A stretch of 64,000 nucleotides of DNA, taken from NCBI RefSeq assembly GCF_053078305.1, contig NZ_CP166879.1; one strand, given 5' to 3'. This document shows, piece by piece, positions 1,253 to 48,177 of the stretch. The first letter of the stretch is position 1. The number at the start of each line of letters is the position of its first letter. The position numbers and the translations under genes were made by a program. The notes under the pieces were generated by a model. That model was not told the DNA's origin, did no database searches, and was given only the letters and a program-made list of their open reading frames with translations.

Positions 1253-2444
1253 ACTCCTCCAGCATCTGTTGTCCACTGTAGGCGGCGCGGCTGCGTTGGC
1301 TGAACTCAGCCAGCGTGGTACCAAATATCGCCTGCGCGATTTCCGGTTTGCTTAACTGGACCAGTTGCAGCACCTCTTCTTCGCTGACGGTTTTACCGCC
1401 GGATTTTTGCAACACTTCACGCGCCGCGTCGCTATGGGTGGCAATCACCGGCACGCCAATTGATAACGCCTCACACAAAATCAGCGGGTAGTTATCGACG
1501 CGAGAACTGAATACCAGCGCATCCATCTGATTGAGCGCGCTCATCAGCTTACGTTTGTCGGTTTCAAAGCCGTGATTGACCACGTTGCCAGCGGTGAACG
1601 GCGAGAACTTACCGAAGGTATGCAGTTCGATTTTGTCGTCCAGCGCCATCATCTCGCGCACCAGGTGCTGGTTAGTTTTGCCGTCGTAACGCAGGTCATG
1701 CGCTACCACCGCGATTTTCGGCTTGCCCTGAGTTTCGCGCACCGGAGGCAAATCCGCCAGAATCGCCTCGGTTGCCATATCAATACCGTTATTGATAATC
1801 CGGCAACGCCCTGGACCGTACAGGCTATTGAAAGCGTCAGCCACATGCTGGCTGGGGGAAATAAACTGACAGCCCAGCGCCAGCATCTCACGGAATAACT
1901 GGCGTTTGCCCGCCACCAGCTGGTGCGCCCGATCAATCTTCACCGGCGGATAGTTATTTAAGGTCGGGCATTTCTGGCAGCCCGTTTTCCAGCCTTCACA
2001 ACCGTCGGTAAAGGCGCAGCGCCCGGTAACGCTCCAGTGGTCGTGCAGCGTCCAGACCAGAGTGACGTCCGGTTTATGGTTTTTCACCTTTTCGCAAAAG
2101 CGCACCACGCTCTTAAGATTTAGCCAGTAGCTGTGCAGCACATGAAAATGCAGGACCACCGGACCCGGTGTACGAGTAATGGTGCGATATAACTCATTGA
2201 AATTGCCAAACAGATCGCGATTAAACAGACGAAACAGGGCAATATTCGCCATTGCGGTCATCCGCGGCGTATGTTTGATGACCTGCGGATAGTTCTGATG
2301 GCTGACGCTCTCTTTGCCGCCTTTGCCGTAGCCGTAGACAAAATGTGACGCCAGCCCCTGTTGCAGCGCACGCTGGTGGAGATCTAACGCCACACCTGCC
2401 GCCCCGCCTTCCGCCAGTCGCACATTAAATTGCAGAATATTCAT
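1227..2444 (-). CDS. wcaC: colanic acid biosynthesis glycosyltransferase (GT family 4-like)
   Basis: 405-aa ORF; conserved position between wcaB and wcaD; overlaps wcaD start. Confidence 0.85.
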   Translation of the reverse strand: MNILQFNVRLAEGGAAGVALDLHQRALQQGLASHFVYGYGKGGKESVSHQNYPQVIKHTPRMTAMANIALFRLFNRDLFGNFNELYRTITRTPGPVVLHFHVLHSYWLNLKSVVRFCEKVKNHKPDVTLVWTLHDHWSVTGRCAFTDGCEGWKTGCQKCPTLNNYPPVKIDRAHQLVAGKRQLFREMLALGCQFISPSQHVADAFNSLYGPGRCRIINNGIDMATEAILADLPPVRETQGKPKIAVVAHDLRYDGKTNQHLVREMMALDDKIELHTFGKFSPFTAGNVVNHGFETDKRKLMSALNQMDALVFSSRVDNYPLILCEALSIGVPVIATHSDAAREVLQKSGGKTVSEEEVLQLVQLSKPEIAQAIFGTTLAEFSQRSRAAYSGQQMLEEYVNFYQNL

Positions 2445-2929
2445 TTAATTACCTTCACTCGCGCTTTTTCTCCCACCACCAGCGCGTTGTCCGGGACAGA
2501 GTCGAGCACCACGCTGCCCGCGCCCACGGTGACGTTGTTACCAAGCGTGATATCACCAAGAATAATGACGTTGGCACCGAGTTCGACGCCGTTGCCAATG
2601 TGTGGACATGCCATGTTATCGGCACCACGATTGCCGATAGTGACGCCGTGGCGAATGGTGAAATCATCCCCCGCTACCACGTTTTTATTGATCACTACGG
2701 CGTAACCGTGATGGATAGTAAAGCGGCGGCCAATGGTCGCGGCAGCCTGGATTTCATAACCGAAAAAGCATTCGGTGATAATGCGATACAGCACCAGCAG
2801 CGGGGCCGCCCACAGATTGTTGAGAACGTTCTTTTTGCGCCACACCGAACAAAAATGAGCGACGCGATAGGCAAGAACCATGCAGCACGGGCGTAAACTC
2901 CAGCTGTTGGCGCGTAGATCTTCCAGCAT
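2441..2929 (-). CDS. wcaB: colanic acid O-acetyltransferase (hexapeptide-repeat family)
   Basis: 162-aa ORF with left-handed beta-helix hexapeptide repeats (e.g. GDDFTIRHGVTIGN, GANVIILGDITLGNNVTVGAGSVV); 4-bp overlap with wcaC. Confidence 0.85.
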   Translation of the reverse strand: MLEDLRANSWSLRPCCMVLAYRVAHFCSVWRKKNVLNNLWAAPLLVLYRIITECFFGYEIQAAATIGRRFTIHHGYAVVINKNVVAGDDFTIRHGVTIGNRGADNMACPHIGNGVELGANVIILGDITLGNNVTVGAGSVVLDSVPDNALVVGEKARVKVIK

Positions 2930-2931
2930 AT

Positions 2932-3771
2932 TTAGCGCCCCCGAATACCATCAGCCAGACGTTTGCCGTTACGCACCGACAGCAGCGTCAGCAAAGTGCG
3001 CCAGGTCATACGTTTATTGCGGATCTGGTAGAGAGTAAACAGCTGATATTTTTTACTGGCACGGTCGAATTTGTCTTTGTGCTTGCGGTAAAAGTGGAAG
3101 TATCCGGAGAATTTTTTCGGTGACGAGGTGATCTGCATTTCGCCGTGATTGATATGCAGGATCTGCGTCGCCTCTTCCACTTTCCACGGTTCGCCATACT
3201 CCACCACCATCCGCAGGAAGATGTCGTAATCCTGTGCCGCTTTCAGTTCGGTATCGAACAAACATTCTTTGAAACGCCACGCCCAGGTAAAGACCTGATT
3301 GCCAATGATATTGCGTTTATAGAACAGGCGGCGTGAATACGGCGATTTGGGATACAGCGGCAAACTTGCTGGTTGGGAATAGACTTCGCCCTGGCAAACG
3401 TAGTCGTTAGCGTACAAAAAGGCGTGAGTGACCAGTTGCTGTTTATGGGCGAGGAAGACGCTCAGACGGTTGGGTGTCCATTCATCATCATCATCGATCC
3501 CGGTGATGTATTCCCCTTGCGCCAGCATAATCGCCTGGTTACGTACCGCGCACGCCCCGCTGTTAATGTCGTTGTGAATGTAGGTAATACGCGGATCGTT
3601 GAGGGCGGTGACGTACTGTTGCAGTTGTTCCCAGGAGGTGGAGCAATCATCCACGATGATCATCTCCCAGTTGCTGTAGTCCTGGCGCAGGACCGATTTT
3701 ATCGCCCGAATCGCCAGTTGTTGGCGGTTCCAGGTCGGCATATAGATTGAGATCAGCGGATTGTCTTTCAT
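2932..3771 (-). CDS. wcaA: colanic acid glycosyltransferase (GT family 2)
   Basis: 279-aa ORF; N-terminal GT2 signature (ISIYMPTWNR...IIVDDCS...DDDDEW); conserved order. Confidence 0.85.
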   Translation of the reverse strand: MKDNPLISIYMPTWNRQQLAIRAIKSVLRQDYSNWEMIIVDDCSTSWEQLQQYVTALNDPRITYIHNDINSGACAVRNQAIMLAQGEYITGIDDDDEWTPNRLSVFLAHKQQLVTHAFLYANDYVCQGEVYSQPASLPLYPKSPYSRRLFYKRNIIGNQVFTWAWRFKECLFDTELKAAQDYDIFLRMVVEYGEPWKVEEATQILHINHGEMQITSSPKKFSGYFHFYRKHKDKFDRASKKYQLFTLYQIRNKRMTWRTLLTLLSVRNGKRLADGIRGR

Positions 3772-7806: not shown

Positions 7807-8274
7807 CCTGGCTTTTTAGCTACCAATACACTGATTTAGCTTAATTTTTAAAACCCTCTCAACATACAGTCGTTGATGAGAAAGGGTTATTGCGGAAATT
7901 AACTTCCGAATATAAGGTGACATTATGGTAATTGAATATTGGCTCTCCAATAATGCAGGAGGAAGTGTTACAGCTAACGGAATAGCAGGCAAGGTAACAA
8001 TTCGGCAATTGGCTATTTTTAAGAATTATATTAAGTGTCATTCAATATGGTTTTTAGGAGTTTCTTTAGGTTGACAATATTTAATATTGCGTCTCCACAT
8101 GCGATATTTCTTAAATAATGTTTTATTATTACCACTTTTAATTCAGGGATAATGTGAGGTTATTACCCTCAAATAATATGAGATAAATAGTGCTGCAACA
8201 TTGCATTTTTGCCCCGATTTATCCATGATCGAATTGTGACATTTGTCATACAACGAATAGGTTTTGTACTTACT

Positions 8275-8898
8275 ATGGAATGGATTGCCGATCCGTCTAT
8301 CTGGGCCGGGTTAATCACGCTGATTGTGATCGAACTGGTCCTCGGCATTGATAATCTGGTCTTTATTGCCATCCTCGCCGAAAAACTACCGCCGAAGCAG
8401 CGCGACCGCGCACGGGTTACCGGGCTGTTGCTGGCGATGTTAATGCGCCTGTTACTGCTGGCGTCAATCTCCTGGCTGGTCACCCTGACTCAACCGCTGT
8501 TCAGCTTCCGCTCGTTTACCTTTAGCGCCCGCGACTTAATCATGCTGTTTGGTGGTTTCTTCTTGTTGTTCAAAGCCACGATGGAGCTGAACGAACGGCT
8601 GGAAGGGAAAGACAGCAATAACCCCACGCAACGCAAAGGTGCGAAGTTCTGGGGGGTGGTGACACAAATTGTGGTACTGGACGCCATCTTCTCACTCGAC
8701 TCGGTGATTACAGCCGTCGGGATGGTCGACCATTTACTGGTCATGATGGCCGCCGTGGTTATCGCTATCAGCCTGATGTTGATGGCCAGCAAGCCGTTAA
8801 CGCAATTTGTTAACAGTCACCCGACCATCGTTATTCTCTGCTTAAGCTTCCTGTTGATGATTGGCTTTAGCCTGGTGGCAGAAGGTTTCGGCTTCGTG
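8275..8898 (+). pseudogene. yegH: yegH (TerC-family membrane protein) 5' fragment, interrupted by prophage left end
   Basis: ORF begins [18 protein letters not shown]... and carries only ~208 codons of a ~527-aa protein before reading into phage end and a stop at 8899-8901. Confidence 0.8.
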
Positions 8899-10147: not shown

Positions 10148-12235
10148 ATGTTTGCTTCAGTTAAAGAGCTGGTTGGATTACCGGGAATGCCGGGAACGGA
10201 GCAAGGCGTCCGCTATTCAATCAGGAAGTATGCAACCAGCGAAACCAGCAGACGCCGCCAGGAAGGCAGTAAAGGTTTTGAATACAGCATCGACTGTTTA
10301 CCTGAAGTGACGCAGCAGGCATTGCGTGAGCGCTACGCCCTGCAACTGATGACGCAAAAAGTCGATGAATCACCGGCTCCGGTGGTGACAAAGGCCAGAC
10401 GCTCGCCTGCCGTGGTTGATGCGGTGGAGGCATATCGCGGATCACCACAACTGATGGTTGAACGCCTTAATGCCCTGACTGAAAACCAGCGCCAGGTGGC
10501 TGATGCACGAATCGCGATCGTCAGCGAAGTGATGAAAGTCGCGCAACACCCCGGTTTCAGCTGTGCGAAAGCTATCCGGTTTATCGTTGACAACCTGGCA
10601 CGTTCGCAACTGGACGAGCGCATTGTGGCAATGGTTGAGACGGCGAACGCCAAAAAGGGAAACAGCCGTGCGTTGAGTGAAATAACGCTGAAACGCTGGA
10701 TTGCGGCCTTTAACAAGGCGCAGAACGCCGCTGAACGCCTGCTTTTACTGGCACCGGGTAAGCGCCAGGAAATAAAAGCCGAAGATATTAACTGGCTGCC
10801 CGAATTTCTGGCGCAGTATCGCCAGTCAAACGGCCGACCAATGACCGAGGCTTACGAGGATTTTGTCGCTGAATGGCAGCACCGGCACGCTGATGAGCCT
10901 TATATGCTCGATATCATGCCGTCTTATGACACCATTCGCCGCGCAATGAAGAAACTGCCGGAAGTGGTGAAACAAAAAGGCCGGGTGACCGGCAGTGAAT
11001 ACCGCCAGCTTGAGGGATTCACGCGCCGCGACTGGTCCAGAATGCCGGTGAATTATGTCTGGATTGGTGACGGTCACGGCATGAAGCTGAAATGCGCACA
11101 CCCGGTTCACGGTCGGCCATTTGCACCGGAAGTGACCTTTGTTATCGACGGTGGCACGCGCTTTGTGGTGGGCTGGAGCCTTGACCTGGCTGAAAATGTT
11201 TTCGCCGTAGCCGGTGCCATACAGCACGGCATTCGCCATCACGGCAAACCGTTTCTGTATTACTCGGATAACGGCTCCGGGGAAACCGCCGACATCCTGG
11301 ATAAGGAGGTTGTGGGGATACTGCCGCGACTGGGGATTAATCACCCGACCGGGATTGCCGGTAATCCGCAGGGACGAGGCATTATCGAACGGCTTAACCG
11401 CACATTACCGATGCGCATAGCCCGTAAATACCGCACCTATTTCGGGAAAGGTGCAGATCGCGAGACGTTACGCAAAACCAACCGCGATTTACGCTCGGCA
11501 TTTACTGCCCTGCAACAGGGCAAACGGCTGAACGTCCGGCAGCAGTCAGCGATGCGTGATTTACCGTCCTGGTCTGAACTGATTGATGCCATTCGTGACG
11601 GTGTTGAGTGGTACAACAACCGGCCGCACGATGAATTACCGGTGAAGCCGAACGGCAAGCATTACAGCCCGGCGGAGTTCAGAAAAAAACGCCTGGCGGA
11701 AGAGGACACGGAAATTGAATGGCTGTCCGATGTTGAGCTGCGGGATATGTTCCGGCCGATGGTGGAACGCCCTGTAAGACGCTGTGAAATACGCTGGCTG
11801 AATAATATTTACTACGCGCCCGAGCTGCGTGACGAGCATGGTCGTAAGGTGCTTATCAGCTATGACATTCATGATGCCGAACGAATTACCGTACGTCGCC
11901 TGGATGGCAGCGTGATTTGCGAGGCGGTATGGGACGGTAATAAACGCGAAGCCTTCCCGGTTAGTGCGGAATACTACAAACAGCAGCAACGCCTTAAAGG
12001 CATGCGTAAACGCGCAGAGGAAAAAATCCGTGATGCCGAGGATGAGGTTGTCAACGTGCTGGAGCACAAGCCGCAGGAGCCCTGGCTGGAAAACATCTAT
12101 CGCCCGGTAGGTAATACGGTGGCCGTTCAGCAACCGGTCGCTGACGATGAACCTGATGAAGAATACGAGCGTAATTTCCAGCGGGGATTGCAGTTGCTGG
12201 AAGCGAAATTAAAAGAAAATGACCCGCTGGCCTGA
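10148..12235 (+). CDS. MuA-like DDE transposase
   Basis: 695 aa; position after ner; central integrase-like core; size and order as MuA. Confidence 0.9.
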   Translation: MFASVKELVGLPGMPGTEQGVRYSIRKYATSETSRRRQEGSKGFEYSIDCLPEVTQQALRERYALQLMTQKVDESPAPVVTKARRSPAVVDAVEAYRGSPQLMVERLNALTENQRQVADARIAIVSEVMKVAQHPGFSCAKAIRFIVDNLARSQLDERIVAMVETANAKKGNSRALSEITLKRWIAAFNKAQNAAERLLLLAPGKRQEIKAEDINWLPEFLAQYRQSNGRPMTEAYEDFVAEWQHRHADEPYMLDIMPSYDTIRRAMKKLPEVVKQKGRVTGSEYRQLEGFTRRDWSRMPVNYVWIGDGHGMKLKCAHPVHGRPFAPEVTFVIDGGTRFVVGWSLDLAENVFAVAGAIQHGIRHHGKPFLYYSDNGSGETADILDKEVVGILPRLGINHPTGIAGNPQGRGIIERLNRTLPMRIARKYRTYFGKGADRETLRKTNRDLRSAFTALQQGKRLNVRQQSAMRDLPSWSELIDAIRDGVEWYNNRPHDELPVKPNGKHYSPAEFRKKRLAEEDTEIEWLSDVELRDMFRPMVERPVRRCEIRWLNNIYYAPELRDEHGRKVLISYDIHDAERITVRRLDGSVICEAVWDGNKREAFPVSAEYYKQQQRLKGMRKRAEEKIRDAEDEVVNVLEHKPQEPWLENIYRPVGNTVAVQQPVADDEPDEEYERNFQRGLQLLEAKLKENDPLA

Positions 12236-12306
12236 AATAAAAAAATAACCCGAGCGGCGACTCAGGTTATTTGATTAAACAAGGTATCAAATGAGAGGTT
12301 AATAAT

Positions 12307-13239
12307 ATGACTGATATTAACGATGTAATCAAGACCATTGATGAACTTATTGATGGCGGCGTACTGACGCAGTATGCCATCGCCAGAGAGGCGGGAATTT
12401 CCGACGGCACATTATCGGCTTTCCGTAAGGGAAAATATAAAGGCGATAACGCTGCTGTGGCTGCTTCCCTGCGTTCCTGGTATGAGAACTGGAATAAACA
12501 AAGCGCACTGCCGGAACCGCCGCAGTTTGTGGAAACGCAGACAGTCCAGGAGCTGCGCGCACTGTTTCAGGCGGTTCGTCTGATGGGCTGTATTAACGTT
12601 ATTGTGGGCGTACCGGGTGTGGGTAAAACGGCCACTGCCCGTAATTACTGCCAGGAGCAACCAAACACCTGGATGATCACCCTGTCACCCGCGCACTCCA
12701 GCGTCACGGAGTGTCTGCTGGAGCTGGCCGATGCGCTGGGGATTGATTACACCCGCGCGAACAAAGGGGCATTATCCCGCGCCATCCGCCGTCGCCTGAT
12801 GGGAACGCGTGGACTGGTGATTGTGGATGAGGCGGATCATCTTGGTATTGACGGTCTGGAGCAACTCCGGGCAATTCAGGACGCCACGGGGATCGGGATG
12901 GTGCTTATTGGTAACCCGCGCGGATTGTTTAAAGGTGGACGCCGCGCCTTTGATGATTTATCGCGCCTGTTCAGCCGTCTTGCCCGTACAAAACAACTTC
13001 GCAAGGCCAAAAAGGCGGATGTGCTGGCCATTGCCAGGGCATGGGGTATCAGTGGTGAGGCCGAGCTGGCCGTCATGCAGGCTATCGCTGAAAAGCCCGG
13101 TGCGTTACGTGTTCTGACACATACGCTTAACCAGGCGTGGCTCACAGCCAGCGGTGAAGGCGCGGCGCTGACAGAAAAACATATTAATGCGGCCTTTAAA
13201 GAGGTTTATACCAACCCTGAATTACTCTCACAGGTGTGA
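12307..13239 (+). CDS. MuB-like AAA+ ATPase, transposition target activator
   Basis: 310 aa; Walker A GVPGVGKT; Walker B VIVDEADHL; clear similarity to Mu B as recalled. Confidence 0.9.
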   Translation: MTDINDVIKTIDELIDGGVLTQYAIAREAGISDGTLSAFRKGKYKGDNAAVAASLRSWYENWNKQSALPEPPQFVETQTVQELRALFQAVRLMGCINVIVGVPGVGKTATARNYCQEQPNTWMITLSPAHSSVTECLLELADALGIDYTRANKGALSRAIRRRLMGTRGLVIVDEADHLGIDGLEQLRAIQDATGIGMVLIGNPRGLFKGGRRAFDDLSRLFSRLARTKQLRKAKKADVLAIARAWGISGEAELAVMQAIAEKPGALRVLTHTLNQAWLTASGEGAALTEKHINAAFKEVYTNPELLSQV

Positions 13240-43095: not shown

Positions 43096-43110
43096 GTATC
43101 CCGTAAACCG
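42957..43110 (-). repeat. right inverted repeat of invertible segment
   Basis: reverse complement matches 41735-41888 with scattered mismatches. Confidence 0.7.
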
Positions 43111-43177
43111 AGGTTTCAGGGATGCCGTATATCTGCTTTAAAAGGCCTTTCCACCTCTTTTTAAGGAAGGTAAATAC

Positions 43178-43738
43178 ATGCTGATTGGCTATATACGCGT
43201 ATCAACAAATGACCAGAACACCGGTTTACAAAGAAATGCGCTGGAATGTGCAGGATGTGAGCAGATTTTTGAAGACAAAATGAGTGGTAAAACGACACAG
43301 CGGCCGGGACTGAAGCGGGCACTGAAGAAACTAAAACCCGGTGACACACTGATGGTCTGGAAACTGGACAGGCTGGGGCGCAGTATGCGCCACCTTGTTG
43401 CGCTGACAGATGAATTACAGCAACAGGGGATAAATTTTCGTAGTCTTACTGACAACATTGATACGTCAACCCCCATGGGGCGCTTCTTTTTTCACATAAT
43501 GGGTGCGCTGGCAGAAATGGAGCGTGAATTAATTGTCGAACGGACACGGGCTGGTCTTGCAGCTGCCCGTGAAAGGGGACGAACCGGCGGCAGACCCCGT
43601 CGTCTCACGCAGGAACAATACGAGCAGGTCGGGCGTTTACTGGCCGGGGGTGTCAGTCGAAGACAGGTGGCACTTATTTTTGATATCGGCCTTTCAACCC
43701 TTTATCGTTATTATCCTGCGAGCGTTTCGGAAAAATAA
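43178..43738 (+). CDS. gin: Gin/Hin/Pin-family serine DNA invertase
   Basis: 186 aa; catalytic-Ser N-terminus MLIGYIRVSTNDQN; C-terminal HTH; adjacent to invertible segment. Confidence 0.9.
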   Translation: MLIGYIRVSTNDQNTGLQRNALECAGCEQIFEDKMSGKTTQRPGLKRALKKLKPGDTLMVWKLDRLGRSMRHLVALTDELQQQGINFRSLTDNIDTSTPMGRFFFHIMGALAEMERELIVERTRAGLAAARERGRTGGRPRRLTQEQYEQVGRLLAGGVSRRQVALIFDIGLSTLYRYYPASVSEK

Positions 43739-43828
43739 GACGCTCCCTTTGTTGGGCCTTTACTGAATTAACGCAAAATGGCGTTTATCGGTCTGTGGAT
43801 ATGATAATTCTGTTTATTCAGGAACAGG

Positions 43829-45886
43829 ATGAATATTATGACGTCCAAATGGGTTCAACTATCATCAATGCCCGGAAACTTTACCGTTAAAGTTTCCGGT
43901 GGTACAGCGGCATTTCTTGAGGCTCCCTTTCCTCCTGCTGAAACGAAAGGAGGAATGACATTTGCTGACTGTCTCATCAGTTTTAATACACAGGATTGCC
44001 TGTGGGTAAGGCCAGTATCCGGTGATCCGAACGTGGAAATTACCGGAGCGGGTATTGGTGCTGTCATTCCGTTAAGTGCTGATGTTGCCGGTACTACTGA
44101 ACCGTCAGACTGGGATAATGCAGAAACACATACCCGTCCGGCAGGAAATGAAACGGCTTCCAGCTCCCCTTCCTGGTATTACGTGATTGTTATAGCCGGC
44201 CAGTCCAATGCTTCATCTTATGGTGAAGGGTTGCCCCTTCCGGATTCTTATGATCGTCCTGATCCACGTATTATGCAGCTGGCACGCAGGAATACACAAA
44301 CCCCCGGAGGTATTCCCTGCAAATACAATGAAATCATTCCAGCAGATCACTGCCTTCATGATGTTCAGAATATGAGTCTGCTGAACCATCCAAAAGCAGA
44401 CCTGAAAAAAGGGCAGTATGGTTGTGTGGGGCAGGGACTTCATATTGCGAAAAAAGTATTACCGGTGATTCCTGCTGATGCCGGGATTTTACTGGTTCCC
44501 TGTGCCCGTGGCGGCTCTGCTTTTACAACCGGCGCAGTTGGCTCATTCGATCCGGCAAGTGGTGCAGCCGAGGCGTCACTACGCTGGGGAGTGGATACCC
44601 CACTGTATCAGGATCTTGTCAGTCGAACTAAAGCGGCACTTGAGGCGAATCCAAAGAATGTGCTGTTATCTGTCGTATGGATTCAGGGGGAAGGAGACCT
44701 TAAAGCGACCCCGGCCCAGCATGGTGCCCAGTTTACTGCGATGGTGAAAAAATTCCGTGCGGATCTTGGGGCTTTCTCCGGTCAGTGTATTGGTGGTTCA
44801 TCAGACAGTGTGCCGTGGTTATGTGGTGACACAACCTATGACTGGAAAGAGAAGAACCCGGCGGCATATGAAACCATTTATAGCGGATATAAAAACCGGG
44901 CTTCCGAGAACATTCACTTTGTTCCACTGATGCACGATGAGTTCGGTAATAAAACCGCGACCAACCTGCCGGAGCACGACCCGGATATCGCTTCTGCCGG
45001 GTATTATGGTGCGGAATCACGGGGAGATGGCAACTGGACAACAGCATCCAGGGCAACCCATTTTAGCTCCTGGGCGCGCCGTTTTCTGGTCTCAGATCGT
45101 TTTGCATCAGCAATTCTTAAATATGCAGGTCTGACCTCTGCATTTATTGCCGGTGTGGCCCCTGATGGTGAAACCCTGCCTCAGCCCGCGCCGGGTGGGA
45201 AACCGGAAGCGCCGACAGGTAGTCAGCCAGGAGGCAGTGAGTCCCCCCATCCGACATCCCCGTCACTCCGTACGCTGCTTTCACTTAAAGCATCAGCAGG
45301 AGAAGCCCCGGCTCAGGGCTGGAAAATTACAGATGGTACAATCCAGCTGACGGACGAAGGTAAAGCGTTGACCGTATCCAAACAAAGCGGAAAAACCTGG
45401 ACGCTTACCCATGGAACTGATGCAGCCGGTGAACTTCTGAAGCATGGTGGTCAGTTGACCTGTAAATTCCGTCTGTCAGGTGAAGTAAAAGAAGGCCAGT
45501 TTGCTCTGGGTATTTACCTCCACACCGATACGGTCCCGGAAGGTGTAACCATGAGTGGTACAGGCACACCGTTCCTGATGGCGTATTATCTCCAGACAAC
45601 AGGCGGCCAGTTAAATCTGATGCACCATAAAACAGGGGGGAATACGAAACTGGGATCATTTGGAGCCTACAATAACCAGTGGCATACACTTGTCCTGAAG
45701 TTTACGGCGGGAAGTGCCCAGGTAACGCCTGTGCTGGATGGCACTCCGGGCCAGGCATTCCAGATGGTGAAAGATGCACTTTCCCCTGCCAAAGATACGC
45801 TGACACTGACAGATGTCACCAAAGGGGCAACTTATGGCGTGTCTTTTGAGAGCGTTGTCCTTGAGGTTAATACCCCTGCGGCATAA
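43829..45886 (+). CDS. cargo protein with central SGNH / sialate-O-acetylesterase-like domain and C-terminal beta-sandwich domain
   Basis: 685 aa; GQSNASSYGE motif after a hydrophobic strand, typical of SASA/DUF303 esterases; Pro/Gly-rich linker PQPAPGGKPEAPTGSQPGGSESP; Mu has no gene here. Confidence 0.6.
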   Translation: MNIMTSKWVQLSSMPGNFTVKVSGGTAAFLEAPFPPAETKGGMTFADCLISFNTQDCLWVRPVSGDPNVEITGAGIGAVIPLSADVAGTTEPSDWDNAETHTRPAGNETASSSPSWYYVIVIAGQSNASSYGEGLPLPDSYDRPDPRIMQLARRNTQTPGGIPCKYNEIIPADHCLHDVQNMSLLNHPKADLKKGQYGCVGQGLHIAKKVLPVIPADAGILLVPCARGGSAFTTGAVGSFDPASGAAEASLRWGVDTPLYQDLVSRTKAALEANPKNVLLSVVWIQGEGDLKATPAQHGAQFTAMVKKFRADLGAFSGQCIGGSSDSVPWLCGDTTYDWKEKNPAAYETIYSGYKNRASENIHFVPLMHDEFGNKTATNLPEHDPDIASAGYYGAESRGDGNWTTASRATHFSSWARRFLVSDRFASAILKYAGLTSAFIAGVAPDGETLPQPAPGGKPEAPTGSQPGGSESPHPTSPSLRTLLSLKASAGEAPAQGWKITDGTIQLTDEGKALTVSKQSGKTWTLTHGTDAAGELLKHGGQLTCKFRLSGEVKEGQFALGIYLHTDTVPEGVTMSGTGTPFLMAYYLQTTGGQLNLMHHKTGGNTKLGSFGAYNNQWHTLVLKFTAGSAQVTPVLDGTPGQAFQMVKDALSPAKDTLTLTDVTKGATYGVSFESVVLEVNTPAA

Positions 45887-45943
45887 TCGTGACGGCCGGG
45901 AATTTATCCGGCTGTAACATCAGTTAATAAGAGTGAGGCTTAT

Positions 45944-46123
45944 ATGACATATATAAACGTCTGCCTGCTGTATTTCTGCACGGTGGTTTGTTGTCTGTTG
46001 CTTGTCAGCGGTGGTTATAAAATTATTCGCAATTATTTTCGAAATAAAATTGATGCAGCTGCCGAGGAAAAGATAAAAAGCGGTGCTGTAATGCCGCAGC
46101 CGAAAGACTCCGGTCAGATTTAA
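45944..46123 (+). CDS. small membrane protein (59 aa)
   Basis: ATG with GAGG Shine-Dalgarno 6 nt upstream; hydrophobic Cys-rich N-terminus CLLYFCTVVCCLLLVSGG; below the 60-aa ORF-track cutoff. Confidence 0.4.
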   Translation: MTYINVCLLYFCTVVCCLLLVSGGYKIIRNYFRNKIDAAAEEKIKSGAVMPQPKDSGQI

Positions 46124-46158
46124 TTTTTTGTGAACCAGAAAAGGAAAGGAGAATATTC

Positions 46159-46404
46159 ATGCCAGAGATTAAAGGCACGGTTACTGAAGAGCTTGTCAAA
46201 CAGGCACTTTATTCTGAAGAAGTGAACCGCGTGCTGAAGGCGCAGGTTCGCAAGGATTTTGAGGCACAAATCGACGCATATGTTGATGAAGTGCTGGCCC
46301 GAATGGTTGGTCGTTCTCCGGCTGAAAACAGCACGGAAAATGAGCCTCAACCCGTAGAGCAACCAGAGCCGGTTCAACCCGGAACTGACGGTACTATGAT
46401 GTAA
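46159..46404 (+). CDS. small acidic hypothetical protein
   Basis: 81 aa; AGGAG Shine-Dalgarno upstream; acidic Pro/Glu-rich C-terminus. Confidence 0.45.
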   Translation: MPEIKGTVTEELVKQALYSEEVNRVLKAQVRKDFEAQIDAYVDEVLARMVGRSPAENSTENEPQPVEQPEPVQPGTDGTMM

Positions 46405-46442
46405 CAATACCGACCGGCAGGTTTCCCTGCCGGGTGAATTTG

Positions 46443-46613
46443 TTAATGCACGTTTTGTGTATTTTCCCTCCGGGGAGAACAGGCAGGACATATCAGCATC
46501 CTGAAACAGGAAGCATTTTTTGGTTTGTATGTCTTGCCATTTTGAGATCGAGAACGGCGATAGATGAGCTGTAAGGGAGTCTTACAGGCAGGGCAAACAG
46601 GCTCTTTATCCAT
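46443..46613 (-). CDS. small zinc-ribbon protein (two CPAC motifs)
   Basis: 56 aa from internal Met (MDKEPVCPACKTPL...ICPACSPRR); AAGGAGA Shine-Dalgarno 8 nt upstream on minus strand. Confidence 0.45.
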   Translation of the reverse strand: MDKEPVCPACKTPLQLIYRRSRSQNGKTYKPKNASCFRMLICPACSPRRENTQNVH

Positions 46614-46721
46614 GATAAAGATCTCCTTTTTATGCATCTCTGCTTTACAGGAGACCGGGGAATATCATAGGATACGCCACGAGCTCGAAGTAAAGCATTG
46701 ATGCAAGTTTTTACAGATTGA

Positions 46722-46756
46722 CCCAGCATAGTTCCAGCTATGCTGGGTTTCCCTTT
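46722..46756 (+). terminator. rho-independent terminator-like hairpin (or palindromic operator)
   Basis: perfect 10-bp inverted repeat CCCAGCATAG-TTCCAG-CTATGCTGGG followed by TTTCCCTTTTA. Confidence 0.5.
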
Positions 46757-46757
46757 T

Positions 46758-47019
46758 ATGTAGTATCCTGTTGATTTGAAACATACTACATATACGCGCG
46801 ATCCTACCTTCACTGTATAAAAAGTCAATAAAATGATCATTTTATGATCGTTTTCACCACCTAACTCTTCGTTTCTTTAAGTAAATAATCACCGCCCTGA
46901 ATCATTGTTGATGACTTTTAAATCTATTTGTTGTATCAATTAAACAAATCGAATCGATCGTTTTTGTCGATCGATTGCATGAGAAAGGCATCAACAACAA
47001 AGCAGGAGGTTATGCGGCC
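46758..47019 (+). promoter_or_regulatory. com-mom control region with dyad symmetries and Dam GATC cluster
   Basis: ATGTAGTAT-N16-ATACTACAT dyad (46758-46791); palindrome AAATGATCATTT (46831-46842); GATC at 46800, 46835, 46846, 46956, 46969; two TCGATCG motifs 13 bp apart ~50-65 bp upstream of com. Confidence 0.5.
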
Positions 47020-47220
47020 ATGTATCGAAACATACGGTGCCGACACTGCAATAAGCTACTGGCACGGGCCAGTTTCAGTTATCTGGAAGTAAAATGTCCG
47101 CGCTGTAAAACCCTCAATCAAATCACATCTCCGAGCGCCACAGAGCACCCCACATACACAAGGAAATCCTGTCGTGGGGAACAGAAAGCAAGTCACATCC
47201 CGTATCATCAGCACGCCTGA
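47020..47220 (+). CDS. com: Com zinc-finger translational activator of mom
   Basis: 67 aa; [10 protein letters not shown]...[12 protein letters not shown] parallels Mu Com as recalled; AGGAGG Shine-Dalgarno upstream; overlaps mom start. Confidence 0.8.
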
Positions 47221-47911
47221 ACTTATTCGCTATAACGACAATATCGTTGGTTATGGCTCCCGTGAGTTGCGGGTTGAGACAATAAGTTGCTGGCTGGCCA
47301 GACTGGTTATCGTCAATAAACATTACAGCCACCGTTTCGTAAATAATTCCTACCTTCATCTGGGTATATTTTCAGAACGGGAACTTGTTGGCGTAATGCA
47401 ATGGGGTTACGCCCTTAACCCAAACAGTGGTGCACGCGTCGTAACGGGTACGCAGAACCGAGAATATATGGAGCTTAACCGGCTATGGATGCATGACTGT
47501 ATGCCGAGAAACTCCGAATCAAGGGCAATCAGTTACGCGCTCAAGCTAATCAGGCAGCTTTATCCGCAGGTACAGTGGGTTCAGTCGTTTGCAGATGAGC
47601 GTTGTGGCTGTCTTGGTGTCGTGTATCAGGCAAGCAATTTTGATTATGTAGGCAGCCATGAATCAACATTCTATGAACTTGATGGCGAGTGGTATCACGA
47701 GATTTGCAGGAGTGCCATTAAACGAGGCGGACAACGAGGTGAACATCTGAGGGCTAATATCGACAGAGCCAGTGTGCATAAGTTCCGACAGTTTCGTTAC
47801 ATCCGGTTTCTGAACAAGAGGGCCAGAAAACGCCTCAACACAAAGCTATTCAAAGTCCAGCCTTACCCAAAACCACAAACAGTTAAAACTGGTTTGAAAG
47901 AGAGTGAATGA
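47174..47911 (+). CDS. mom: Mom DNA-modification enzyme (adenine N6 modification, anti-restriction)
   Basis: 245 aa; last prophage gene, overlapped by com as in Mu; family assignment from position and com linkage. Confidence 0.7.
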
Positions 47912-47957
47912 GCGCTTAAAAACTCATTCTAAAACTCAAAAGAAAAGCGCCGATTTA

Positions 47958-48039: not shown

Positions 48040-48177
48040 CTGGGCGCGAAGGAAAGTGGCGGTGCCGTTCAGACTCTGTTCAGAACACCAGTTACTCAGG
48101 TGAAGGTAGAGATTGGATGCGTAAAACTCGCGGTTCATTTGAGAGTTGAGTTTGAGAAGCATTCCAGCGGTTGCCAT
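48040..48177 (-). pseudogene. ftnB: ftnB (ferritin-like protein) 5' fragment, truncated by prophage right end
   Basis: minus-strand ORF begins [46 protein letters not shown] (ferritin-like N-terminus) then runs into phage end sequence. Confidence 0.7.

Follow-up and report, generated by a model that had tools for sequence, protein, structure and literature searches.

A NanS-p-type sialate O-acetylesterase gene with a Mu-lineage-specific N-terminal domain and an exchangeable enzyme cassette in an Sp18-type Mu-like prophage of Escherichia coli

We analyzed a module of four open reading frames (ORFs), three on the (+) strand and one convergent on the (-) strand, that lies between the gin and com genes of a Mu-like Escherichia coli prophage. 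The prophage is carried on a 64,000-nucleotide (nt) stretch of contig NZ_CP166879.1 (RefSeq assembly GCF_053078305.1), and this whole stretch is referred to here as the window. The first gene of the module encodes a 685-amino acid (aa) protein that is, by homology, a sialate O-acetylesterase of the NanS-p type, a group of enzymes thought to help E. coli strains that make Shiga toxin (STEC) feed on O-acetylated mucin sialic acids. The enzyme family and the prophage type are known already. New, as far as the literature searched shows, are the replacement of the capsid-binding domain of NanS-p by a domain specific to the Mu lineage and the sharply bounded exchange of the esterase as a cassette; no publication linking NanS-p with Mu-like phages was found in that literature. 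The occurrence of the same enzyme on different N-terminal domains provides a natural experiment on the role of the N-terminal domain and on the sharing of accessory enzymes among prophages of a single host. The esterase gene was found to be organized as follows.

43829..45886, (+), NanS-p-type sialate O-acetylesterase gene, 685 aa, three domains (phrog_143, Pfam and PDB matches)
43841..44077, (+), Mu-lineage-specific N-terminal beta domain, residues ~5-83, in place of DUF1737
44078-44173, (+), flexible S/T/P/G-rich linker, residues 84-115, ending in SSSP (residues 111-114)
44174..45130, (+), NanS/SASA catalytic domain, residues 116-434 (54.8% identity to 3PT5)
45131-45268, (+), P/G/S-rich linker, residues 435-480
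45269..45883, (+), C-terminal lectin-like jelly-roll domain DUF6645, residues 481-685 (Pfam and 6YP6 matches)

The assignment of the catalytic and C-terminal domains was based on profile and structure libraries. The PHROGs family phrog_143 was matched over residues 65-684 of the 685-aa protein (E = 1.9e-273), and Pfam searches placed SASA at residues 119-315 (E = 7.5e-13) and DUF6645 at residues 537-647 (E = 2e-25). Among solved structures, NanS (YjhS) of E. coli O157 (PDB 3PT5) aligned with residues 108-432 (E = 3.8e-110, 54.8% identity over 321 positions) and the C-terminal domain of phi24B NanS-p (6YP6) with residues 481-682 (E = 1e-41, 41% identity). The GQSN motif occupies residues 124-127 and includes Ser126 (codon 44204-44206), a QGExD motif was located at residues 286-290, and His411 is encoded at 45059-45061. 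When ten diverse homologues were aligned, S126, Q286, G287, E288, D290 and H411 were found to be invariant. In 3PT5, S126 and H411 also aligned with the serine of GQSN (chain residue 30) and a conserved histidine (chain residue 312); their assignment as catalytic residues is based on this alignment and on general knowledge of SGNH enzymes. In the C-terminal domain, three of the four aromatic residues proposed to line a glycan site (as listed in PMC10462455) were kept, as F558, Y563 and Y587, and the fourth fell in a gap. No signal-peptide-like stretch was detected within the first 60 residues (maximal hydropathy of 0.85). A full-length AlphaFold model from the single sequence was unusable, with a predicted local distance difference test (pLDDT) score of 32.

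These results agree with much of what an earlier note on this DNA had proposed from the letters alone. The SASA/SGNH esterase that it claimed was recovered by hidden Markov model search (Pfam SASA) and by the match to NanS, and the nucleophile Ser and the His were found to be conserved. Its GQSN core, Pro/Gly linker and beta-rich C-terminal domain correspond to residues 124-127, residues ~435-480 and DUF6645, and the N-terminal domain that it called unrelated does stand apart: residues ~5-83 matched no Pfam family, including DUF1737, and comparison of their profile with that of DUF1737 gave an hhalign probability of 0.15%.

Homologues of this N-terminal domain (N-domain) were sought in libraries of 1.8 and 5.8 billion proteins and were found only at the N-terminus of NanS-type esterases. 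The carriers were E. coli, Shigella and Salmonella, with identities of 96, ~75, 56-61, 31-41 and 28-34%; the word-indexed search returned the homologues only as fragments, and full-length members were concealed within DUF1737-type clusters in the library of 50% representatives. Wherever genomic context was available (loci L007, L008, L013, L015 and L016), the N-domain gene belonged to a Mu-like prophage and came immediately downstream of genes for the baseplate, the tail fibre and fibre assembly and, in some cases, of gin; the versions in these other prophages include diverged ones of 28-61% identity. The homologous genes in related loci belonged to Mu-type baseplate and tail Pfam families. 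The N-domain DNA was 96-100% conserved across 204 genomes, whichever esterase allele followed, and at least four diverged N-domain lineages were found to retain the fusion to the esterase. The ratio of nonsynonymous to synonymous substitution rates (dN/dS) between the window and an Sp18-type copy was 0.10, as calculated from only 8 differences. Judged by this distribution, the N-domain belongs to the Mu-like backbone, at the end of the tail-fibre region, and not to the enzyme cassette.

An AlphaFold model of the N-domain built from six sequences was confident for residues 10-70 (pLDDT 81-88) and contained four long strands. It matched only generic cupin/double-stranded beta-helix folds in the PDB library (Foldseek E of at least 0.09) and uncharacterised phage proteins of ~90 aa (template modelling scores of 0.55-0.68, E of at least 0.013). 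By this model, the N-domain would be a small cupin-like domain.

Two related loci differ in how the esterase is built. At the Salmonella-type locus L015, the esterase is 784 aa long, with SASA and DUF6645. In an IMG/VR variant (L016; UViG 2744054454_000013), the N-domain homologue was recognized by hhalign (89.6%, E = 1.9e-6) and is a separate 78-aa ORF at 1264-1500 whose ATG overlaps the fibre-assembly stop codon (ATGA). An in-frame TAA follows this ORF, and the esterase restarts at AGGGAG-ATG and extends over 1516-3627. This arrangement is either a truly split gene or a nonsense-interrupted fusion.

We next compared the window with Sp18-type prophages in 100-nt segments. Identity was 92-100% at 43100-44199 and again at 46149-47950 but just 24-75% across 44200-46148. 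The breakpoint on the left coincides with the GQSN codons, and that on the right lies just upstream of the DUF826 gene. Since the drop in identity is confined to this interval, the esterase core, the C-terminal domain and the DUF1378 gene that follows act as a single cassette that is open to exchange; outside it, the N-domain and DUF826 remain with the backbone.

44200..46148, (+), exchangeable cassette of esterase core, C-terminal domain and DUF1378 (identity drop versus Sp18-type prophages)

The cassette of the window makes up a separate 90% cluster, with 535 member sequences. When the core plus C-terminal region was used as query, the nearest relatives were DUF1737-type proteins of E. coli, E. 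albertii and Citrobacter that reached at most 63% identity over the full query. The cassette would be swapped by homologous recombination with other nanS-p alleles; such alleles abound in the lambdoid prophages that these STEC hosts also carry.

The module is widespread in this prophage type. DNA of the gin-esterase spacer and N-domain (43760-44150) was detected at 95% identity or more in 204 of 5426 complete E. coli genomes (~4%), mostly STEC of bovine or human gut origin, and the esterase allele of the window itself was present in 42 genomes. The order gin, esterase, DUF1378, DUF826, convergent gene, com and mom recurs in Mu-like prophages of many STEC genomes. In strain FRIK804 the N-domain match, at position 444,030, is inside Phi804-3, a Mu-like prophage that shares 96.5% identity with Sp18 of O157 Sakai (PMC7430833); Sp18 was judged intact, and its DNA was found to be packaged (PMC2669165). 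Sp18-type Mu-like prophages of STEC have this layout as standard at their right end, and the position, at which the earlier note was aware of no such esterase in a Mu-like phage, is the normal one. In the phage collection, the N-domain was detected only in two Mu-like phages inserted into Stx phages, and no record of D108 or SfMu was among the esterase or N-domain matches listed. A search of genome contigs with the full 685-aa protein returned no related loci. The copies described here, annotated only as "DUF6645 domain-containing protein", are overlooked nanS-p genes to be added to the STEC count.

The protein shares most of its plan with NanS-p of Stx and other lambdoid prophages (933W L0105/z1466; phi24B gp84, also vb_24B_21): a SASA domain with the same motif variants, the DUF6645 lectin-like C-terminal domain, no signal peptide and a prophage-borne gene. 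DUF1378 and DUF826 genes are also frequent, though not universal, downstream of the lambdoid genes (PMC10462455). Unlike those proteins, the window protein lacks DUF1737 and has an unrelated domain of ~83 residues instead, and over the core plus C-terminal region its identity to any allele of the DUF1737 type is only 50-63%. Its gene belongs to a transposable Mu-like myophage, where it lies between gin and com and not in an stx/Q-holin region. Lambdoid esterase genes had been described in the earlier note as downstream of tail genes; they are instead in the late region, between stx and holin, with the Q antiterminator gene upstream of stx (PMC10462455). With phi24B gp84 the protein also shares the three-domain plan, flexible S/P-rich linkers and an SSSP that resembles a proposed processing motif, but the anchoring domain is non-homologous, and the particle would be that of a Mu-type myovirus and not of a T=9 podovirus.

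Chromosomal NanS (YjhS, 3PT5) is likewise related through the catalytic domain, at 54.8% identity and with the GQSN serine and the histidine aligned. NanS is an exported, single-domain protein of ~330 aa that belongs to the nan regulon, whereas the window protein is phage-encoded and has added N- and C-terminal domains. Sp18 (O157:H7 Sakai) and its relatives, such as Phi804-3, have the same gene order and a backbone at least 96% identical around the cassette; the window differs from Sp18 in its esterase/DUF1378 cassette (24-75% nt identity over 44200-46148) and in the frameshift of its convergent gene. A NanS-type esterase was also observed directly after the lysis genes of the P2-like phage vB_EcoM-705R2 (Peduoviridae; L009 6800-8050). 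This protein has a DUF1737-type N-terminus as judged by eye and is 64% identical to the core of the window protein; the enzyme is thus common to three temperate phage types.

With a probability of roughly 0.7, we consider the 685-aa protein to be an active sialate O-acetylesterase that would be cytoplasmic, freed at phage-induced lysis and directed at O-acetylated sialic acids of mucus. Its SGNH-type active site (Ser126/His411) would strip O-acetyl groups from the 9(7,8)-O-acetylated sialic acids of gut mucins, and the lectin-like C-terminal domain would assist it. NanS and NanS-p are reported to de-O-acetylate mucin-derived sialic acids (PMC8319020), and NanS-p confers a growth advantage on E. 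coli with Neu5,9Ac2 (PMC10462455). Since a signal peptide is absent, the enzyme, whether free or attached to virions, would gain access to its substrate only upon lysis of the cell by the prophage. The de-O-acetylated sialic acid would then feed surviving E. coli kin, to the presumed benefit of the lysogen population, and mucus would become more accessible. Several findings weigh against this proposal. The protein is at most 63% identical to any characterised NanS-p and one of the four aromatic residues is missing, so its specificity could differ. E. coli already has a chromosomal nanS, and STEC strains usually have several nanS-p genes, which makes the marginal benefit of an extra copy uncertain. 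Neither a Mu-type C-box nor a clear sigma-70 promoter was found upstream, and expression may be lysogenic, by read-through from gin, or late and C-dependent.

The alternative that fares best is display of the esterase on the virion, with the Mu-specific N-domain as an anchor to capsid hexons, baseplate or fibres. The chemistry would be the same, at another site and for another beneficiary, as the enzyme would help the phage to move through or dwell in mucus; we regard such attachment as possible, at odds of clearly less than one in two, and it is compatible with release at lysis. The precedent is NanS-p of phi24B (gp84), which decorates capsid hexons via DUF1737 and is later proteolytically processed (bioRxiv 10.64898/2026.04.10.717836). 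It is precisely this DUF1737 anchor that is replaced in the window protein, and the replacement travels with the Mu-like backbone and not with the enzyme cassette. The esterase gene always comes right after tail-fibre, fibre-assembly and gin genes, the N-domain homologue of L016 begins on the fibre-assembly stop codon, and the esterase has no signal peptide.

Divergence among loci gave a mixed picture of this attachment. At the truncated locus L007, the N-domain (28.6% identity) has diverged to the degree of the baseplate structural proteins (24-38%), and the visible 33-residue N-terminal stretch of the esterase core is 64% identical. At L013, by contrast, the N-domain has diverged further (59% identity) than the baseplate proteins have (85-93%) and so does not simply co-vary with them. 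The SSSP ahead of the core (residues 111-114) resembles the SSP cleavage motifs proposed in gp84, but SSP is not conserved in Salmonella-type variants. Moreover, no paralogue of the N-domain was found among the structural genes or other ORFs of the prophage. The association of the N-domain with the Mu-like backbone and tail-fibre operon fits an adaptor role, and we tentatively propose that a swap of adaptors may put the same esterase on different particles, by DUF1737 in lambdoid and P2-like phages and by the cupin-like domain in Mu-like phages. If so, display of a mucus-active enzyme would be a general modular trait of temperate gut coliphages, and cassette exchange would keep the enzyme up to date across co-resident prophages.

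It is very unlikely, in our estimation, that the esterase modifies O-acetylated glycans of the bacterial surface, such as colanic acid, O-antigen or O-acetylated K1 polysialic acid, with a role in adsorption, superinfection exclusion or lysogenic conversion. Other coliphages do have SGNH esterases on their virions that remove acetyl groups from O-antigen, the esterase gene adjoins tail-fibre genes, and the left flank of the prophage in the window is the colanic-acid (wca/wza) cluster, from which the earlier note had drawn its suggestion of a colanic-acid substrate. This adjacency is accidental, however: Mu-like prophages insert at random, and the same prophage module is beside unrelated genes in other genomes. 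In addition, the lysogen's own surface could not be modified from within, as there is no signal peptide, and the carriers are mostly gut STEC of cattle and humans, consistent with a mucin substrate. NanS, with which the catalytic domain shares 55% identity, has O-acetylated sialic acids as its substrates (PMC8319020).

Least probable of all is that the gene is a functionless, decaying passenger left by recombination between co-resident prophages. In favour of this reading, the window allele and several others have a frameshift in the adjoining convergent gene, an IS1 element and a rearrangement disrupt the module in one genome, and an in-frame stop codon separates N-domain and esterase in one IMG/VR variant. 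Against it, the 685-aa ORF is intact with all catalytic motifs invariant, and the fusion is found in 204 genomes and is kept by the diverged N-domain lineages, with an N-domain dN/dS of 0.10.

The remaining features of the module and its boundaries were as follows.

43178..43738, (+), gin-type DNA invertase, left boundary, phage backbone (phrog_125, E = 6e-95; 71% nt identity with Mu gin)
43739..43828, (+), gin-esterase spacer, 90 nt, without recognisable terminator
45944..46123, (+), DUF1378, 59-aa single-pass membrane peptide (Pfam E = 1e-23; phrog_494)
46159..46404, (+), DUF826, 81-aa acidic protein (Pfam E = 3.4e-15; phrog_311)
46414..46433, no strand, GC-rich hairpin between convergent genes, 8-bp stem
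46443..46905, (-), frameshifted remnant of a 154-aa gene, two overlapping frames (phrog_26524, unknown function)
47020..47911, (+), com (47020-47220) and mom (47174-47911), right boundary, backbone (phrog_13819/6417 and phrog_1384; RefSeq coordinates)

The prophage was placed among Mu-like (Sp18-type) elements by the PHROG matches of gin, com and mom, by identity to Mu and by insertion flanks that vary between genomes; in addition, ORFs at 10148-13239 match transposases A and B in size and position, the basis on which they were assigned. Nucleotide homology to Mu (71%) ends at 43705 inside gin and restarts at 47243 inside mom, the latter gene being 71% identical to that of Mu. Compared to Mu, in which gin and com are 95 bp apart, the window thus has ~3.2 kb of extra DNA, close to the ~3 kb insert that had been proposed. 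The four ORFs that had been listed with it were all present (43829-45886, 45944-46123, 46159-46404 and 46443-46613), each preceded by a Shine-Dalgarno-like sequence as claimed.

Two of the small genes also conformed to their initial description as a membrane peptide and an acidic protein. The 59-aa peptide has one hydrophobic N-terminal helix (Kyte-Doolittle hydropathy of 2.46), and the 81-aa protein has an isoelectric point of 4.4. In Stx phages PA2 and Ss-VASD, a DUF1378 homologue (54% identical) is directly after nanS-p and a DUF826 homologue (45% identical) follows it, before the holin gene; the same order after nanS-p has been noted in the literature (PMC10462455). At L015 both genes are absent, and the esterase is followed by different small genes, com and a putative C5-methyltransferase gene. 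DUF1378 and DUF826 are therefore not universal partners of the esterase.

The fourth ORF was only partly as first described. The reading frame of a 56-aa peptide with two CPAC motifs does exist at 46443-46613, from an internal Met of a 64-aa ORF at 46443-46637 (-), but it is not a separate gene; it is the 3' part of the frameshifted 154-aa gene. In O157:H7 FRIK2069 this gene is intact; the window and other copies of its allele have the frameshift, and RefSeq annotates the copy equivalent to 46443-46905 as a pseudogene ('frameshifted'). The hairpin between DUF826 and this gene is probably a bidirectional terminator: in its 45-nt context a folding energy of -21.2 kcal/mol was calculated (z = -4.4), and none of 200 shuffled sequences was as stable. 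A defence-system role was also considered for the small and convergent genes and was unsupported, with no matches for them in NCBIfam or PADLOC.

Signals for expression of the module were examined upstream of the esterase and of com. The gin-esterase spacer (43739-43828) contained no terminator-like site and folded no better than shuffled sequence (z = -1.4). A sigma-70 scan of the upstream region scored below the expectation from shuffled sequence. The C-protein box of Mu (TTATN6ATAA), which is present in Mu Pmom, was absent near com and the esterase of the window and occurred elsewhere only at chance frequency. As this box is missing upstream of com, the late activator of the prophage probably recognizes a different site; among the 11-mers that the sequence upstream of com shares with other parts of the prophage, nothing was convincing as a late-promoter motif. 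Upstream of com (46950-46985), two GATC sites were observed in a CGATCG...CGATCG arrangement, without the C-protein box of Mu (TTATGCCCCAATAA). A similar GATC arrangement is found in the Dam/OxyR control region of Mu Pmom.

The prophage ends at about 8897 and 48040. Its left flank (8209-8896) is the 5' part of yegH, beside wza/wca, and its right flank (48041-48177) holds the 5' part of ftnB, on the minus strand; araFGH comes next, in inverted orientation compared to the wca side. The two flanks are from different chromosomal loci. The 5-bp target duplication was absent (CTTCG versus TGGGC at the prophage ends), and neither flank junction was found in any complete RefSeq E. coli genome. The flanks look like one junction of an inversion, produced either through replicative transposition of the Mu type or when two copies of the prophage recombined, with a span that we take from the K-12 map to be ~150 kb.

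Rearrangement was also observed in E. coli SMN197SH3 (L004, NZ_CP024056.1; 5001-7903 and 11218-11700), in which IS1 is inserted between DUF1378 and DUF826 and the esterase is split, with residues 1-161 encoded ~4.6 kb away on the other strand, beside gin. At two further loci, a Mu-like phage within Stx1a phage LC727895 (L001 10164-11216) and L015 (11785-12837), com is followed by a gene for a 350-aa protein in the place of mom. This protein resembles C5-cytosine DNA methyltransferases as judged by eye, and a different DNA-modification enzyme would at these loci lie under seemingly com-type translational control.

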